64,000 nucleotides of DNA. Origin: Escherichia phage EC.W2-6. The translations under genes were made by a program, and so were the position numbers. Under the pieces are notes generated by a model. That model was given only the letters and a program-made list of their open reading frames with translations. It ran no database searches and was not told where the DNA came from. The stretch lies in the sequence record PP445229.1; one strand, given 5' to 3'. Position 1 is the first letter of the stretch, and each line of letters begins with the position of its first letter. Shown here in pieces: positions 29,503 to 64,000 of the stretch.

Positions 29503-29511
29503 TATACATTA
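29503..29511 (-). promoter_or_regulatory. TAATGTATA element on minus strand (candidate phage-sigma-dependent late promoter)
   Basis: Exact 9-mer (minus-strand sense) about 40 nt upstream of the large internal protein gene start. Confidence 0.45.
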
Positions 29512-51651: not shown

Positions 51652-53193
51652 TTAGTAACTCTGATTCCATCTGCTTACGTTTGCCTCATACAGAGAAGCA
51701 CTTCCGTAGCTAACGTCATGCTTAGAGCGACCACGATGTGTAACAGAGCACGCTGAATAGCGCATTGCATCCATTAAGTCATCATGTTCTTTAATAATCT
51801 TACCAACCTTACGGTGATATCTAGCTTTCTCTTCGAATAGCTTAGCATTAGCGGCTGTGTTAAAGATTTTAAAGCGTCCACTCATCATTCTTTCTCGGAT
51901 ATCTGTGATTCCCGGTTCTACAAAGAAGTTCTTTTTACCATCCATTCCAATTTTGTTGTAGAAGGTCTCACTCTGTACGTTAACTCCTGCATTCTTATAG
52001 AATTGAGCAACAGATGAGCCACTACCTTTCTCAATATTGTCCGCATCGTGCGGTAGGATGACAGGAATCCACTGACCACGACCATTAATAGCTGGAGCAT
52101 GATACACTGGAGTAAAGCCACCTTCTTTATATGAGTCGTAAACATAGATAGTATCCGTGTTTGCATCGTAAGCTGTCCAAACAGCAGCAGTTGGGTGATC
52201 AATACCAATATCAATTGCACAGACACGTTTCCACGTATCAGGAATTTCGAATGGTTCACATTTAATTGTGTCATCCGATACATCATAAATCAAACCACTT
52301 CCTAACAATGGCATACCTTTCGAACGCATCTCTAACTGCCACGCTGGAATACCTTCAGTCATATCTTTTATATCTTGGTCAGTGATATGTCCACCTAGGT
52401 CTGCATGAGCATCCCACCAAGAAGCGTTCTGGAAATATAGAGAACCTGTGTTCTCATCCCCTTCGCCTTTCATAAATTTATCTACCAGTTCAGTTAAACC
52501 GTTCTCTGGTGTAGCTGTAATTGTAACTAGACCTTTAGTTGTGAGTGTACGTGTGACGCACTGTGCGAATATAGCCATAGACTCGTATGGATCTTCTTCG
52601 TCTAACCAAATGTAGTCAACTGTTGCACCCATCAATGTGTGTTCACCCTGTTGGGTTGAACGGAATTCTAATGTACTTAAACCGTCAAACTCCCCTCTCT
52701 CATTTTGATGTTTGATTTGTACGATTTGAAGTTTGTTACCATCTCGTTCTATCGTGTCAATGACGATAGCATCACGAGGAATGACACCTGTCCCCAATAA
52801 GTTTGTATCCTTTCCGATAGGTGTACCAAACAATTCCTTTTGCAATACTTTCCTTGTGGAATCCCCTGTAATACCAACTGCCCATGCTAAGATAGGTCTT
52901 TTAAATTTATATCCTGTCCACCAAGTTGGGTAGCGACCTGTGACATGACAAGCAAACTCGTATGCCTCGCTATAAGATTTACCAACACGGTTCGCTGCAC
53001 ACAAGAATCTAAAGCGATGCTTCAATCCTGCTGCATAAAATTTCTTTTGGAAGTCATACGCCTTGAAAGACAAAATCTTATTATACTTCCTCCATTGGTC
53101 ACGCTCTTTCAACATATTCAATAGTGCTTTCTTTTCCTCTACACTAAGATTGTTACCAGTTAGAGCTTCATAAATTTGTTTATCTAATGACAT
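51652..53193 (-). CDS. terminase large subunit
   Basis: Walker A AANRVGKS, Walker B YIWLDEE, C-terminal nuclease-like acidic motifs (AIDIGIDHP, DAMRY). Confidence 0.85.
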   Translation of the reverse strand: MSLDKQIYEALTGNNLSVEEKKALLNMLKERDQWRKYNKILSFKAYDFQKKFYAAGLKHRFRFLCAANRVGKSYSEAYEFACHVTGRYPTWWTGYKFKRPILAWAVGITGDSTRKVLQKELFGTPIGKDTNLLGTGVIPRDAIVIDTIERDGNKLQIVQIKHQNERGEFDGLSTLEFRSTQQGEHTLMGATVDYIWLDEEDPYESMAIFAQCVTRTLTTKGLVTITATPENGLTELVDKFMKGEGDENTGSLYFQNASWWDAHADLGGHITDQDIKDMTEGIPAWQLEMRSKGMPLLGSGLIYDVSDDTIKCEPFEIPDTWKRVCAIDIGIDHPTAAVWTAYDANTDTIYVYDSYKEGGFTPVYHAPAINGRGQWIPVILPHDADNIEKGSGSSVAQFYKNAGVNVQSETFYNKIGMDGKKNFFVEPGITDIRERMMSGRFKIFNTAANAKLFEEKARYHRKVGKIIKEHDDLMDAMRYSACSVTHRGRSKHDVSYGSASLYEANVSRWNQSY

Positions 53194-53262: not shown

Positions 53263-53736
53263 TTAACTCTCGTCCGCTTCCTCCCCCTTTTCAGCGTCCT
53301 CAGAGTTGTCTTCTTCTGGAGGCATAACGTCGATACCAAGTGCTCCAGTCAAGAAGTCCTTGATTTGTGCATTCAATGATTCTTCGTTGATTACATTCTC
53401 TTCCTCAATCTTAACTTCAACAGAGGCCGCCTTAGGATATACCAGATCTGCAACTTTTGATGCAGCCTTGAATCTAAGATCAGGTGGAATATTAGGATCT
53501 TCGTAAATTTGAATTAACACTTCATCAGGAGACAAATGACTTGCAGCAACACGGTCCAACATTAATTGTGTCAGTTTACCTCTACTACCTCTGGGTCGTC
53601 CGAATTTATTTCCCTTTTGAAACTTCCCATTGCTTGGGTTCATACCACGGCCTTCAAGTTCTTCCGTTACTCCGGGTAATCTTCCTGTAATCTCAGCTAC
53701 CTGTGCAGGCGTGAGTTCTCCGTTTTCTCCAAACAT
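53263..53736 (-). CDS. putative terminase small subunit
   Basis: N-terminal helix-turn-helix-like LTPAQVAEITG, basic GNKFGRPRGS segment, acidic C-terminus; directly upstream of large terminase. Confidence 0.5.
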   Translation of the reverse strand: MFGENGELTPAQVAEITGRLPGVTEELEGRGMNPSNGKFQKGNKFGRPRGSRGKLTQLMLDRVAASHLSPDEVLIQIYEDPNIPPDLRFKAASKVADLVYPKAASVEVKIEEENVINEESLNAQIKDFLTGALGIDVMPPEEDNSEDAEKGEEADES

Positions 53737-53792
53737 TTTATACTCCTTCTACATTATCAACAACACAAAAAGCCTCCCAACGGAGGCAAATA

Positions 53793-54425
53793 TTACTTAC
53801 AATCACCAACGGACAGGTTAAACATCTTACCTAGAGCAATCGTCTCACCTTCCCACGGAAGTTCTGCACCCTTCTCTTCCTCTAAAAGAATAGAGCCGTC
53901 GACCAAAAATTTTTCGTAGTCTCGCAGTGCGTCGTCTACTAGCTCACTCTTGTGAATCCATGTAATTGTTTCTGTACCATCCTCTTCGATTCTAACATCA
54001 CGATGCCATTCATCTTTGGAGGTAATATAATCATGGAGCATTTCGTATTCAGCTTCTTCAATCATCTCAATCATTGCACGAGCATAGTCAGGGAGGTGAT
54101 CATGTTTAGTAGATTCGTATTCAACTACTTCCAGAGTAGAAGGCTTAGCCCGTGCAACTTCTTCAAGTACTTTTGAGCGATCTTTGTAGTAGTTCTCATA
54201 TTTATCACCAATAGTACCGACTTGAAGTCCACGGTATTGTTCTACTAAACTCATCATATCTTTCTTCTCCGTAATAGTTGGTTTAAGAATACTTCCACTA
54301 TATAAATCTTGTACAGCCAATCCTGAAACATTTCCCATAGTTTCTAAATGCTGTAAGCTACAACCAGATCGACATAGCTGTGAATTGTAATCGTTAAGGT
54401 CCATCGCTTGGATTAAATTATTCAT
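53793..54425 (-). CDS. hypothetical protein (210 aa)
   Basis: Start at internal ATG overlapping upstream gene stop by 8 nt. Confidence 0.4.
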   Translation of the reverse strand: MNNLIQAMDLNDYNSQLCRSGCSLQHLETMGNVSGLAVQDLYSGSILKPTITEKKDMMSLVEQYRGLQVGTIGDKYENYYKDRSKVLEEVARAKPSTLEVVEYESTKHDHLPDYARAMIEMIEEAEYEMLHDYITSKDEWHRDVRIEEDGTETITWIHKSELVDDALRDYEKFLVDGSILLEEEKGAELPWEGETIALGKMFNLSVGDCK

Positions 54426-54672
54426 TTGTATCTCCCTTGCTGTAATCTTTGTATGTTTCTTTTCTGTAAGTGCGGAATGCTCTGAAGAAGAGCCAACCAA
54501 AACTACTTACATCAATTGTAATATCGAAATCTGTTTCATCATCTAAATCAACAAGACGGCCTAAGCAAGTAGCTTCCATCCCTTCTTCAGAGTCACTGTT
54601 GACCACGAAAGCGTATGTCTCCGTTCTGAACCGAGGCACCATCTCTGATAAAAAGTCTAGTACTAAATTCAT
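54421..54672 (-). CDS. hypothetical acidic protein (84 aa)
   Basis: First minus-strand ORF after the large non-coding junction. Confidence 0.4.
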
Positions 54673-55261
54673 AATTCTTCTCCTCTGAATAAGAGTATAA
54701 AGGGCACATCATAAGACCTACCCGTAAAGGCCACCTCACATTAACACCCGTGAGAATACCTGTATTCATTTTCGTAGTCTTCTTCAGAGAAGCTACCGTA
54801 TTCATCTTCTGTCATACATCCCTCTGATAAAGTTAAGACATAAAGGGGACGTCATCTTTGATGACTACTTCACATTAAGGCACCCCCATAAAGGCCATGT
54901 CACGTTAAGGCCTATCCATCCATGTGCTGTGTTTAAGCTTACCACATTTACTACATCTCCAAGTGGACTTATAAAGGGTGTGAACTCTTTCATCCCCGTA
55001 AGCTTTGCGTATCCGATAGTACTCATGATCACATTTGAATTGCTTAATGATTAACTTAATTTTCCACATAAGTTCTCTTTCAACCTTATATATAAGAGTT
55101 TAAAATACAGATTTATAAAAAATAAAGATGTATATATCTGTTTAAAATTCTGATTTGACCGAGTGGGGCTAGCCGCTCGCCGCGCGTTTCCTAAAAGGGG
55201 GGAGTCCTCATTTAAAAAAGGGTTATTGGCAATGCCTTTACACCTCCTTCCACGTTCCAAC

Positions 55262-55330
55262 CTTTCCCCGTGCCTACTCCCCGTTATTCTTTCCCCGTGT
55301 ATACCATCCTATTCATTAGCTACCCGTTTA
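55262..55330. repeat. iteron cluster 1 (four YCCCGTR repeats)
   Basis: TTTCCCCGTG, CTCCCCGTT, TTTCCCCGTG and CTACCCGTT within 70 bp. Confidence 0.55.
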
Positions 55331-55635
55331 TTTAGTACCCCTTTAGAGAGTGAGAGAAAGGCTATACTCTGATAAGGCACAATCATAACAGGTCTAATAA
55401 TACCGTATTGTTACCGTTCAGCTCCCCATAGTTTGAATGTAAATAGTTTCAATAGTAATGATTATGAGTGCAATAATGATGTATGTATTAATTAAGTGGA
55501 TGATTGTAATTCTTTTAATAATTGCTTTTATTCTTTTCTTTTTCAGCGTGCCTTTGTGAGCGTAGCGAACGTCTTTGATGTTTGAGTTATACAATTATTT
55601 AAGTGGTATATTATTACCGCACTATCTTGCTATGT

Positions 55636-55722
55636 TTCCCCGTGGTCTACCCTGCGGTTGTATGCTCCCCGTGTCCTGGTCTGTTGGTCTGCTACCCGTA
55701 GCACCAGCGTAACACCCGTAGG
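55636..55722. repeat. iteron cluster 2 (four YCCCGTR repeats, ~25 bp spacing)
   Basis: TTTCCCCGTGG, CTCCCCGTG, CTACCCGTAG and AACACCCGTAG; separated from cluster 1 by an AT-rich stretch. Confidence 0.55.
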
Positions 55723-55836
55723 ATTAGTGTTATAAAGTAACAATAGCTAGTAAGCTGATTCTCTGAGTATGGAAGGTTTAGTAAATTAAATTCCTTTAGT
55801 TTTCAGTGAGTTATAAGAAAGTTAGAAAATAAATGG

Positions 55837-55866
55837 TTGACAGGTTTTTCCTTTATTATATAGTTG
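55837..55866 (+). promoter_or_regulatory. sigma70-like promoter (TTGACA-N16-TATAGT)
   Basis: Near-consensus -35 and -10 hexamers about 45 nt upstream of the 55909 gene; spacer closely resembles the promoter at 58091. Confidence 0.55.
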
Positions 55867-55908
55867 CGATTGTAATTTGTAGTTTTCATCAACCATAAGG
55901 AATATCAA

Positions 55909-56781
55909 ATGTCTAAAGTAGCAATTAACCACTTGAACAAAGCAAACGAAAGCCTTTCCTCTTTAGGCTTAACCGTTGGTAGTCCTGATGCGTGGATGGA
56001 AAACGAAAGCGCACGTAAAGGATTCAAAAACTCTGTAATGCTGGCTTGCTTGATCATTAATTCTACTGCGAACGCCTTACAGTGTGAAGATGAAAGCACG
56101 TTCAAAGAGAATGGCTTTACCGATATACAGGACGCTATCAACTGTTACATTCAGGCAAATTTGGATAGCTGGAATCAGAAAGATTGGCCTGAGTCATGCC
56201 GTGATGTGAAAGCTGAATTATCCCGCTTGTCTGTCATGGTTGAAGCATGGAACAAGAAAAACAAGAAACAACCAATCAAGCCTACTGTTGCAAGTAAGAT
56301 TATGAAGTCTGTTAATCTGGCAAGTTATGCACTGGTTGCAGCTATCGGTGTTAGTGCACTGGTCACGTCTCTTTCTGATAAGGCTATCGCTAGTCCTGCT
56401 CCTGCAACTGATGCGGCTAGTGTCTTCTCTAGTTCCATCAATAAGGGTTGGATGATTTGCAACGGTGCGGATAGTGACGGCAATAATATCGTGCTAAAGA
56501 TGAAATTTAGCAACGTAACAAATGATGGAGTTCTCTTTCAATCTAAAACGTTAGATAATCAGCCTAACAGTGATCTAGTTCTCAAGCGTACTGATAACGA
56601 TGCGGATATGGTGACATTTGGCACTGTACAACGTTATGAAGACGTTAAAGCTGTAACCAACCTAGTGAGCTATGGCCCGATCAATGAGTCGATGATCGCC
56701 ACCACGGTTTACAATAACGCTGATAATGCTGTTTATACTGTTCACGTTAATTTAGCCAACTGCATTAAGGCTAGTAAGTAA
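55909..56781 (+). CDS. membrane protein with central TM helix (290 aa)
   Basis: Hydrophobic LASYALVAAIGVSALVTSL between a helical N-domain and beta-rich C-domain; sigma70-like promoter about 45 nt upstream. Confidence 0.5.
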   Translation: MSKVAINHLNKANESLSSLGLTVGSPDAWMENESARKGFKNSVMLACLIINSTANALQCEDESTFKENGFTDIQDAINCYIQANLDSWNQKDWPESCRDVKAELSRLSVMVEAWNKKNKKQPIKPTVASKIMKSVNLASYALVAAIGVSALVTSLSDKAIASPAPATDAASVFSSSINKGWMICNGADSDGNNIVLKMKFSNVTNDGVLFQSKTLDNQPNSDLVLKRTDNDADMVTFGTVQRYEDVKAVTNLVSYGPINESMIATTVYNNADNAVYTVHVNLANCIKASK

Positions 56782-63922: not shown

Positions 63923-64000
63923 CATCGACTTATAGCCCTTGTGTTTATCAGAGGGCTATGTGAGGGTGTTCCTCATTAACTTATTAATTCAGGCATATGC

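Follow-up and report, generated by a model that had tools for sequence, protein, structure and literature searches.

At the left end of the genome of Escherichia phage EC.W2-6 (PP445229.1), a phiEco32-like coliphage of the genus Kuravirus with a 76.4-kb genome, short repeat units of a single orientation occupy the spacers separating three small minus-strand genes, and a unit of the same type abuts the genome end itself. We tentatively propose that these units serve, at the DNA level, as accessory terminase sites or as sites of terminus recognition, in functional analogy to the T7 arrays, lambda cosB and pac boxes. With similar reserve, we suggest that the array and the module ahead of the terminus may form one motif family within the terminus-recognition architecture of this phage group. 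Positions refer to the window, that is, the whole 64,000-nucleotide stretch that was analyzed; the minus strand is the sense strand here.

Architecture of the array and its surroundings

The array comprises four same-orientation bipartite units of about 22 bases with the minus-strand consensus RTGA-N5-SCCTTWAY. The TAA of unit u1 (CCTTAACGTGACATGGCCTTTATG, 54887-54910, minus strand) is the stop codon of the upstream gene (54905-55069, minus strand), which encodes a 54-aa zinc-ribbon-like protein (C-x-H...C-x2-C) homologous to SU10 CDS1 (phrog_7696, E 6e-17) and is conserved and unannotated in the GenBank record. Unit u2 (54839-54880, minus strand) is made up of CCTTAATGTGAAGT, an 18-nt palindrome (AGTCATCAAAGATGACGT, 54849-54866) and CCCCTTTATG; its counterpart in phiEco32 and FH3 lacks the palindrome insertion, and in IMEP8, Bas92 and KBNP1711 the palindrome is found at the same relative position but in a different unit. 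Spacer module I ends with a TTTATCAGAGGG box, whose AGAGG is able to pair with the CCUUU of u2, and with the start codon of a 24-aa acidic ORF (box and start codon, 54814-54834, minus strand). This ORF (MTEDEYGSFSEEDYENEYRYSHGC and a stop codon; 54741-54815, minus strand) is homologous to the C-terminal half of phiEco32 phi32_2 and divides the two spacer modules. Its stop codon is the TAA of unit u3 (TTAATGTGAGGTGGCCTTTACG, 54723-54744, minus strand), which is flanked by the iteron-like words CACGGGT (54745-54751) and TACGGGT (54719-54725), the latter overlapping the 3' end of the unit. Unit u4 (GTCTTATGATGTGCCCTTTATA, 54696-54717, minus strand) gives way to another sequence (ATATGCCTAGCCCTTTATAC) at the corresponding position of SR02, Paul and IMEP8, where ATG-N6-CCTTTAT is still kept. 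Spacer module II ends with CTCTTATTCAGAGGAGAAGAATTATG (54670-54695, minus strand), containing a TCAGAGG box, a ribosome-binding site and the start codon of an 84-aa gene (54418-54672, minus strand; homologous to SU10 CDS2 and phi32_4) that lies directly downstream of the array. Two of the four units are followed by a TATCAGAGG box.

An earlier note on this DNA had described degenerate direct repeats of about 25 bp at the start of a non-coding junction. Both of its long copies are real: the quoted strings start at 54724 and 54888 and belong to a 33-nt repeat pair (54712-54744 and 54876-54908) that is 76% identical, each copy sitting within a spacer module of about 80 nt that is itself duplicated and finishes with TTATCAGAGG and a start codon. 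The shorter copies could be located at 54697 and 54840 (ATAAAGGG) and at 54970 (TATAAAGGG). The last of these (CACACCCTTTATAAGTC, 54966-54982, minus strand), a supposed fifth copy, lies within the 54-aa gene and outside the array, is mutated in phage EK5 and missing from the FH3/NJ01 lineage, and is best taken as a match due to chance or to coding. The description of the region did not survive: because the stretch holds the 54-aa gene and the 24-aa ORF, and the repeats are the intercistronic spacers of an operon, the region is not simply non-coding. Short minus-strand peptides, which the note had offered as an alternative, exist in the form of these two reading frames but not in the repeat units. 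The repeats are also a genuine second family, as the note had it, but their separation from the iterons is incomplete, with YACGGGK words flanking u3. For the left-end annotation this means that one real gene is absent from the record and that two doubtful gene calls overlap the repeats.

Toward the genome end, the array is followed by an AT-rich stretch (55075-55160), with YACGGGK iterons also nearby, and by a 193-bp direct terminal repeat (55171-55363, minus strand) that we place by homology to phage Paul (repeat_region 1-193). The repeat begins AGCCTTTCTCTCAC, and the base past its inner end again opens AGCC (AGCCCCAC). Measured from the left terminus (55363), the array occupies the interval 453-667 bp, and it starts about 260 bp past the inner edge of the terminal repeat. 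In the other direction, the operon, which the SU10 paper predicted to be early, closes with the only intrinsic terminator found (53772-53787); there is none in the array, and the u2 palindrome has no T run. The first gene past this terminator (53263-53736, minus strand) encodes a putative small terminase subunit of 157 aa, begins about 1 kb downstream of the array and is preceded by a gp36-type late promoter (TAATGTAGA, at about 53747-53755); the large terminase is encoded at 51652-53193.

A profile built from four sequences of the 157-aa gene matched only small terminases in the PDB, namely 7JOQ and 6W7T of phage PaP3, at borderline E values (0.019 and 0.049), while nothing informative came from Pfam, PHROGs and NCBIfam or from a PDB search with a single sequence. 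The YF01 paper also assigns this gene as the small terminase (PMC9965538). In PaP3 the small terminase binds to the cos site, GCCGGCCCCTTTCCGCGTTA, in a sequence-specific manner (PMC7672466), and this site contains GGCCCCTTTC, a word of the type seen in SCCTTT and in the kuravirus terminus.

Enrichment, conservation and recurrence at the genome-end cut

Chance falls far short of explaining the array. On the minus strand of the whole 76.4-kb genome there are four full units, RTGA-N5-CCTTWAY, all inside 54712-54903, against an expected mean of 0.44 and a maximum of 3 in 200 dinucleotide shuffles. Likewise, seven same-strand SCCTTWAY cores fall inside 300 nt, compared with a shuffle maximum of 3. 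The array is one-stranded and unique in the genome.

Across three genera the array is 96-100% conserved, where the flanking genes are only 60-70% identical, and in u1 23-24 of the 24 bases are identical in SU7, KBNP1711, NJ01 and FH3. Among 57 distinct units, CCTT.A and the S at -1 are invariant, and RTG stands at -9 to -7 in 53. A search of IMG/VR for further related loci returned phiEco32 and NJ01 only. The earlier note had named poor conservation in related genomes, together with translation of the region, as what would speak against its repeats; instead, they are strongly conserved in relatives and hold no conserved coding sequence, as neither the frame nor the length of the ORFs across the array nor a synonymous bias is kept.

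A pre-terminus module (CCTGTTATGATTGTGCCTTATCAGAGTAT, 55364-55392, minus strand) abuts the left genome end and consists of an array-type unit (ATG-N6-CCTTAT) and TATCAGAG. In all 13 relatives with a readable junction, with terminus positions taken from records and papers, SCCT[T/G]WAY followed by TTATCAG[A/T/G]G or TATACAGTG is located 6-20 bp ahead of the left terminus, |RGCCTYTC, and the terminus itself opens with AGCCTTTC. In KBNP1711 the junction word, GTGCCCTTTACTT, is identical to an NJ01 array unit. Forward transcription is not expected at the junction module, which argues for a role of the motif at the DNA level.

Related arrays are also present in more distant phages. In 7-11, GAP52, vB_CsaP_009 and LAh_9, of which vB_CsaP_009 and LAh_9 have a large terminase about 60% identical and 7-11 and GAP52 were found through the small terminase, arrays with a shared first half and a lineage-specific second half precede a PaP3-type small-terminase gene by about 100-400 nt. 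These phages are without the three small early genes, yet each has 3-6 units. Their units, ATGA-N3-SSC followed by ATC[A/T]A(TCAGTG) or GGCATG, stand between a terminal-repeat-like region and the small-terminase gene, the termini having been deduced for these distant relatives. In vB_CsaP_009 a unit of its own type and TATACAGTG lie about 145 bp upstream of a GCTAGC box, the expected left cut; among the Privateervirus relatives, a search for a record starting at the physical terminus gave no informative record break. In a comparison that spans few lineages, the second half of the unit reads CCTTWAY in Gordonclarkvirinae; in the phages with deduced termini it reads (G)CATC[A/T]A for Grimontviridae and GGCATG for Lahexavirus. 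Across families, the small and large terminase genes are the only neighbor genes conserved along with the array.

A possible packaging role and its alternatives

The earlier note had guessed at packaging sites, among other functions, and the guess has gained comparative support, as the motif adjoins the terminal-repeat cut and, in several phage families, the small-terminase gene is preceded by an array. Several features expected of terminase-recognition sites can be seen here: the array is beside the cut site and the terminase genes, it contains several short asymmetric copies of a motif above chance, and the motif is also at the cut site. In our model, the array would be read by the packaging machinery, most likely by the PaP3-type small terminase encoded about 1 kb downstream, which might assemble on several sites as lambda gpNu1 does on the R sites of cosB. 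The array would then provide accessory or cooperative sites that aid the search for the concatemer junction or orient packaging toward the terminase and structural genes. That a protein binds the array, that the small terminase is the protein in question and that packaging is affected by the binding are steps that we infer from sequence comparison. Several observations count against a packaging role. The distance of the array from the terminus exceeds that of lambda cosB and the T7 arrays; the RTGA half is absent from the junction module of several phages; and an array of this motif was not found in the 2-kb left non-coding region of PaP3. Moreover, the kuravirus units are in transcribed intercistronic spacers, with stop codons of upstream ORFs and an RTG start at a fixed 6 nt, and may therefore have a role in RNA or translation, either instead of packaging or besides it. 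There is a slim chance that the units are dual-use, serving as terminase or terminus sites on DNA and, once transcribed, as anti-Shine-Dalgarno and stop/start (mini-ORF) cassettes; if so, one sequence code would couple translation of the left-end genes with packaging access to the genome end.

The array might instead be bound by a DNA-binding factor other than terminase, such as an origin initiator, an early repressor for which it would be an operator array, or a DNA ejection or end-protection factor. Same-orientation direct repeats near an AT-rich stretch and the YACGGGK iterons of the terminal repeat are what such a factor might use, iteron words border u3, with one of them overlapping its 3' end, and the operon is predicted early; however, no gene that could encode an initiator or repressor varies together with the array, conservation across families extends to the two terminase genes only, and the closest paralog of the motif is the cut-site sequence. 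We consider such a factor unlikely. Quite unlikely, in our view, is an element acting in RNA, in which the units would be stop/start cassettes with an anti-Shine-Dalgarno (CCUUUA) that set or couple translation of the 24-aa and 84-aa frames or drive M-x-x-P-L-stop mini-ORFs. All units run in the direction of transcription and are bracketed by a probable promoter region ahead of the 54-aa gene and by the terminator at 53772-53787, u1 and u3 supply stop codons of upstream ORFs, RTG is fixed 6 nt ahead of CCT in 53 of 57 units, and in 13 of 13 modules the unit nearest the downstream gene can pair with its Shine-Dalgarno sequence (CCUUU:AGAGG) across a loop of variable length. This invariant 5-bp helix is, however, all that RNAalifold detected in the 13 modules, with no covariation, and both strands fold no better than shuffles (z -1.39 and -0.56). 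A relay of coupled small ORFs that would connect the 54-aa with the 84-aa gene is unbroken in only 7 of 18 phages and broken in 11, the present phage included; unit spacings show no triplet phasing (8 of 22 are multiples of 3 by programmatic count, P 0.46); some units (those of Paul and SU7 and the palindrome-bearing ones) have in-frame stops; third codon positions are conserved as much as or more than first and second ones; and the motif family is also found at the untranscribed pre-terminus junction and in relatives without these genes. An Rfam search of the array (E<=10) gave no relevant match, type III antitoxin repeats included.

Recombination could have left such units behind as functionless boundary cassettes or relics, if a module was duplicated upon insertion of a small ORF (moron) and kept by gene conversion. 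The array is indeed an approximately 80-nt module duplicated around the 24-aa ORF, a 26-aa membrane-peptide ORF sits exactly at the TAATG junction in IMEP8, ECBP2 and KBNP1711, the number and spacing of units differ between phages, and one palindrome turns up in different units. Against this, the unit is near-invariant across genera while neighboring coding DNA has diverged by 30-40%, and its first half is kept as far as Grimontviridae and Lahexavirus, both of which would be surprising unless the sequence itself were under selection, making relics very unlikely. It is highly improbable that the units are promoters, either weak ones of the gp36 (phage sigma) type, as suggested by TTAATGTGA, or sigma-70 ones. 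AATGTG, one base off the gp36 element AATGTA(TA), is present in u2 and u3 and includes the four gp36-contacted bases (AATG, -14 to -11), but it is found in only two of the four units and is replaced in other phages, with ACATGA, GTATGA or ATATGA in SU10, NJ01, SR02, KBNP1711 and ECBP2. Elsewhere in the genome there are nine AATGTA[T/G]A words, of which seven stand in intergenic contexts resembling promoters, SU10-listed ones included; all nine are without CCTTTAY, and a scan of both strands of 54690-54920 for sigma-70 -35/-10 hexamers with a 16-18-nt spacer returned no site. Just as hard to credit are functional small peptides encoded by the units (MTWPL..., MRWPL...), even though RTG-frame ORFs exist and have been annotated (phiEco32 phi32_1 and phi32_3; GenBank CDS 54593-54805): past the fifth codon their length and sequence differ in close relatives, indels break the frame, some units carry in-frame stops, CCT and TTA have no synonymous variants in 57 units, and 80 nt are shared between the frame-A ORF and the well-conserved 84-aa gene.

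A range of known elements was also compared with the units informally, by eye, using their consensus sequences. None of boxA, the T4 MotA box, sigma-32 and sigma-54 promoters, the CRP, IHF, DnaA, PhoB, OmpR, ArcA and Chi sites, the RF2 frameshift site, the consensus pause element, ToxI and the E. coli CRISPR repeats fits all units.

Relation to known repeat arrays, packaging sites and cassettes

Among phages with short direct terminal repeats, T3 and T7 are the only ones in which recognition and cutting of the concatemer junction is understood, and the SU10 paper called the mechanism in phiEco32-like (C3-morphotype) phages unknown. Several phiEco32-like phages have been isolated as therapeutic candidates. 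If the motif is a recognition code, the pre-terminus module and the array would together be a concrete candidate for a packaging signal, termini would become predictable from sequence in this group, and there would be a handle for transducing particles or contained phages.

The T7 arrays (C[C/A]TAAAG at a period of about 13 nt, T7 positions ~174-345 and also inside the repeat, as checked on the T7 sequence) offer a parallel in layout. T7, like the present phage, is a podovirus with a short direct terminal repeat (160 bp compared with 193 bp here), a 7-nt core of single orientation with a period of 12-16 nt within clusters (14 or 16 nt here), and core copies at or inside the terminal-repeat region in addition to an array in the left unique region. 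Unlike in T7, however, the unit here is bipartite (RTGA-N5-core), and there is no sequence homology (CCTAAAG in T7, CCTTTAY here) and the opposite orientation relative to the end. Also, in T7 the array directly adjoins the repeat and precedes the early promoters, whereas here a gap of about 260 bp holds a gene and the units are interleaved with small genes. To our knowledge, no function has been established for the T7 arrays either.

In lambda cosB (R3, R2 and R1, bound by gpNu1) and in the pac boxes of SPP1 and P22, several short small-terminase sites lie between the cut and the terminase genes at the first-packaged end, as do the candidate sites here. Lambda cosB reaches no further than about 170 bp from the cut and has an inverted site as well as one for IHF, whereas the four units here, at a distance of 450-670 bp, all run in the same direction. 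A summary of what cos, pac and the small terminase generally do is given in PMC7672466. PaP3 (6W7T) provides the nearest detectable relative of the 157-aa gene product, its large terminase is 38.6% identical, and the word GGCC(CC)TTTC is common to the PaP3 site, the kuravirus terminus AGCCTTTC and the units, although a word this short could be shared by coincidence; unlike in the present phage, the PaP3 genome carries cohesive ends of 20 nt in place of a terminal repeat.

A different parallel is found in the PeSLs of T4-type phages, mobile promoter/stem-loop cassettes that lie between small early genes and that Arbiol et al. reportedly described in 2010. The units here have neither the sigma-70 early promoter nor the stem-loop of a PeSL, but in both cases repeated non-coding cassettes flank tiny variable early ORFs and apparently mediate their insertion and shuffling.

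A conserved array of direct repeats among small left-end genes

The stretch 54400-55950 is identical (100%, same coordinates) to that of Escherichia phage EC.W8-1 (PQ030848.1; Kuravirus, phiEco32 group), and 97 phage records match it. Every gene from 55069 down to the portal gene lies on the minus strand, which is the forward strand in the phiEco32 and SU10 records; the sequence upstream of CDS1 in the SU10 paper (SU10 position 177) matches the reverse complement of ~55070-55180.

All strings quoted in an earlier note as degenerate direct repeats were found where that note had placed them, while a short copy near 54970 that it had counted among them lies inside a gene and is unconserved. The array comprises four minus-strand units: u1 (54887-54910; CCTTAACGTGACATGGCCTTTATG), u2 (54839-54880; CCTTAATGTGAAGT + AGTCATCAAAGATGACGT + CCCCTTTATG, with an 18-nt palindrome in the middle), u3 (54723-54744; TTAATGTGAGGTGGCCTTTACG) and u4 (54696-54717; GTCTTATGATGTGCCCTTTATA). 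The 76.4-kb genome contains the bipartite motif RTGA-N5-CCTTWAY four times, always in the array and on one strand (shuffles: mean 0.44, maximum 3), and seven copies of its second half, the SCCTTWAY core, fall within 300 nt, versus a shuffle maximum of three.

As the earlier note's reading implied, the repeats are conserved in related genomes: 18 of 18 phages from three genera, Kuravirus, Nieuwekanaalvirus (KBNP1711) and Suseptimavirus (ECBP2, SU7), carry four to five CCTTTAY cores, and CCTTAAY cores as well, at the same location and pointing the same way. Within clusters the core-to-core distance is 14 or 16 nt, and the larger spacings (25, 27, 34, 37-39, 49 and 56-58) are accounted for by indels and the 18-nt palindrome. 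Across 57 distinct units CCTT.A is invariant and always preceded by G or C, with RTG exactly 6 nt upstream in 53. The u1 sequence of EC.W8-1 is identical at 23-24 of 24 positions to that of SU7, KBNP1711, NJ01 and FH3, against just 60-70% identity for the two genes beside it when the more distant pairs are compared. The sequence itself is thus under constraint.

The array does not lie in a non-coding junction, as had been supposed. The region holds a gene for a 54-aa protein (54905-55069, minus strand; C-x-H...C-x2-C pattern; phrog_7696, E 6e-17), conserved at the amino-acid level across the three genera, and a 24-aa acidic ORF (54741-54815, minus strand) homologous to the C-terminal half of phiEco32 phi32_2; the units are the intergenic spacers between these and a conserved 84-aa gene (54418-54672, minus strand). 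The TAA stop codons of the upstream ORFs lie within u1 and u3, and each ~80-nt spacer module runs from two units through a TTATCAGAGG or TATTCAGAGG box to the next start codon, the two modules being duplicates of each other. The PQ030848.1 annotation looks wrong at 54418-55069, leaving the 54-aa gene uncalled and shortening the 84-aa gene to 54418-54579.

Short minus-strand peptides, the alternative in the earlier note, thus hold as a reading of the 54-aa gene and the 24-aa ORF but not of the units, in which frames are broken between relatives. Conserved coding sequence was rejected as a reading of the units, with neither frames nor lengths conserved. Annotated ORFs run through them (phi32_1 and phi32_3 in phiEco32; 54593-54805 in PQ030848.1) and differ in length and sequence between close relatives via frame-breaking indels; some units contain in-frame stop codons, the u4 reading frame varies among phages, and variation is not concentrated at third codon positions. 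Of 22 unit spacings, 8 are multiples of 3 (P 0.46), so that triplet phasing is absent, and in just 7 of 18 phages, EC.W8-1 not among them, does a ribosome relay run unbroken from the 54-aa to the 84-aa gene.

The palindrome (54849-54866; 6-bp stem, 3-nt purine loop) splits u2 between its halves, and its 3' arm recreates an ATGA-N5-CCTTTAT unit. IMEP8, Bas92 and KBNP1711 have a AGTCATCAAAGATGACGT-type palindrome in a different unit at the same relative position (loops AAA, GGG or GAG), and phiEco32 and FH3 are without it; it is a tiny mobile element or else arose by unit conversion.

The same motif before the left terminus

AGCCTTTC opens the records that start at the physical left end (phiEco32, SU10, Paul, IMEP8, SU7), which places the left genome end at 55363 and the direct terminal repeat, of literature length 193 bp, at 55171-55363. 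The stretch singled out in the earlier note thereby sits 360-670 bp in from the left end, and its repeats are on the window's antisense strand. In all relatives with records spanning the concatemer junction, the same two motifs recur in the same order in unique DNA directly before the left terminus, a module paralogous to the array units. A selection of these junctions, with a slash at the terminus, reads ATGATTGTGCCTTATCAGAGTAT/AGCCTTTC in EC.W8-1, GCCTTAAC-N8-TTATCAGAGTAT/AGCC in TH06, GTGCCTTAAT-N9-TTATCAGTGACT/AGCC in SR02, AAGCCTTTAC-N8-TTATCAGTGCT/AGCC in Bas92, AAGCCTTTAC-N8-TCATCAGGGCT/GGCC in ECBP2 and GTGCCCTTTAC-N9-TTATCAGGGCT/GGCC in KBNP1711; the KBNP1711 junction word GTGCCCTTTACTT is identical to one NJ01 array unit.

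AGCC follows both terminal-repeat boundaries, with AGCCTTTC at 55363 and AGCCCCAC at 55170 (55360-55366 and 55166-55173). The inner boundary is contained in an 8-bp palindrome, GGCTAGCC, and the outer is also CTAGCC in most relatives, suggesting a common cut-site word, (C)T^AGCC. A 42-nt tandem duplication (55089-55156; TATATA..GTTTAAAAT..GATTT, 81% identical) falls within AT-rich, promoter-like DNA ahead of the 54-aa gene; NJ01 has both copies, and SU10 and phiEco32 have one.

YACGGGK iteron words (plus strand MCCCGTR), all in one orientation, are found to the left and right of the terminal repeat, within it and at either side of u3 (54719-54725, 54745-54751, 55262-55320 and 55630-55730), one copy overlapping the 3' end of u3. 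Terminal-repeat iterons and array both read ATGGGT instead in Suseptimavirus, so that the two repeat families intermingle and vary in concert. The second family beside the iterons proposed in the earlier note is genuine, but the two are not simply adjacent.

Distant relatives and the putative small terminase

More distant relatives were found through the large terminase (~60% identical in Cronobacter vB_CsaP_009 and Aeromonas LAh_9) and the small terminase (Salmonella 7-11 and Cronobacter GAP52). All four lack the three small left-end genes and keep the 157-aa gene, the putative small terminase gene (44-51% identity), and in 4/4 three to six same-orientation units lie directly upstream of its homologue. 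The units of 7-11 are ATGACCTCCCATCAAAC, ATGACAAGCCATCAATCAGTG, ATGATATCCCATCTATCAGTG and ATGAATAGCCATCAATG, 26-27 nt apart; GAP52 has three like them, vB_CsaP_009 six of the form ATGA-NNT-SSCAT, and LAh_9 ATGA-N3-GGCATG units. Kuravirus and distant-relative units have their first half, ATGA-N3-SS-C, in common, whereas their second is lineage-specific. ATGAGGTGGC is identical in vB_CsaP_009 and LAh_9, its EC.W8-1 counterpart being GTGAGGTGGC. In vB_CsaP_009 an own-type unit followed by TATACAGTG lies ~145 bp upstream of a GCTAGC box, where by analogy the left cut would be expected, making this a predicted terminus.

Searched with a profile built from the 157-aa protein and homologues, the PDB gives only two matches, 7JOQ (E 0.019) and 6W7T (E 0.049; Pseudomonas phage PaP3), both small terminase subunits; the YF01 paper (PMC9965538) arrived at the same assignment by HMM. 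The PaP3 protein binds sequence-specifically to a 20-bp cos site, GCCGGCCCCTTTCCGCGTTA (PMC7672466). This site includes GGCCCCTTTC, a word of the type seen in the units and at the kuravirus terminus; the likeness is short and PaP3, unlike EC.W8-1, has no array of this motif, making it a lead and not a test.

On the minus strand, the intrinsic terminator ending the left-end operon (53772-53787; GCCTCCGTTGGGAGGC + TTTTT) is followed by a gp36-type late promoter, TAATGTAGA, the 157-aa gene (53263-53736) and the large terminase gene. Terminator, promoter and putative small-terminase ribosome-binding site are tightly packed at 53737-53792, a compact border that sets the small genes of the left-end operon off from the late genes.

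Possible roles of the units

We tentatively favour a model, somewhat short of an even bet and built on sequence comparison, whereby the repeats act on DNA. The array, whose units are paralogous to the module marking the left cut, would provide additional recognition sites for the terminus or packaging machinery, and the small terminase would be their most probable reader. What the sequences show is the motif, enriched, conserved and non-coding, its paralogy with the junction module and its association across families with the small-terminase gene; binding, the binder and a part in packaging are inferred. The logic would resemble that of the lambda cosB R sites, of pac boxes or, from the T7 sequence and with T7 pac signals considered, of the arrays of unexplained function beside the T7 terminal repeat. 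A different DNA-binding function, as an origin or operator, seems unlikely to us, and that the array is a recombination relic very unlikely.

An RNA or translation role, alone or in addition, we consider slightly less probable than an origin or operator. The fixed RTG, the stop codons embedded in the units and their anti-Shine-Dalgarno pairing speak for it: RNAalifold on 13 modules gives a single helix between CCUUU of the gene-proximal unit and the downstream Shine-Dalgarno AGAGG in 13/13. This helix is invariant, and covariation therefore neither supports nor refutes it. An Rfam search of the array returned nothing, and folds of either strand are no more stable than shuffles (z -1.39 and -0.56). 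At the junction module such a role is unlikely, since upstream of it the forward strand holds neither a gene nor a promoter-like site. Packaging recognition would place the array within a known class, the terminase-recognition sites and arrays of short direct repeats that mark the ends of phage genomes. As an element type it is not surprising, yet it supplies a concrete candidate for the packaging signal of this phage group. No description of the array appears in the genome papers on SU10, SU7 and YF01 or in the paper on the gp36/gp79 structure.

The array contains no sigma-70-like promoter or terminator. In u2 and u3, TTAATGTGA is similar to the gp36 element AATGTA, in which gp36 contacts the AATG bases (PMC12276001). 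A gp36-promoter reading was rejected: other phages have ACATGA, GTATGA or ATATGA in those units, and AATGTA[T/G]A words, among them those on the SU10 list of gp36 promoters, stand at other places in the genome and lack CCTTTAY. Between u3 and u4, TAAGACCTA (54712-54720, plus strand) matches a 9-mer located 23 nt upstream of AATGTATA in two minus-strand gp36 late promoters (near 29503 and 46333), in the opposite orientation and possibly by coincidence.

Solitary copies of the composite motif occur at 63925-63975 (plus strand; TAGCCCTTGTGTTTATCAGAGGGCTATGTGAGGGTG, 7-bp stem, then ~350 nt without an annotated gene) and, outside the window, at genome position 74540-74570 (minus strand; GTGCCCCTTTATCAGAGGCAC, directly past a gene end). 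Hairpins are possible at both, with TTTATCAG in the loop.
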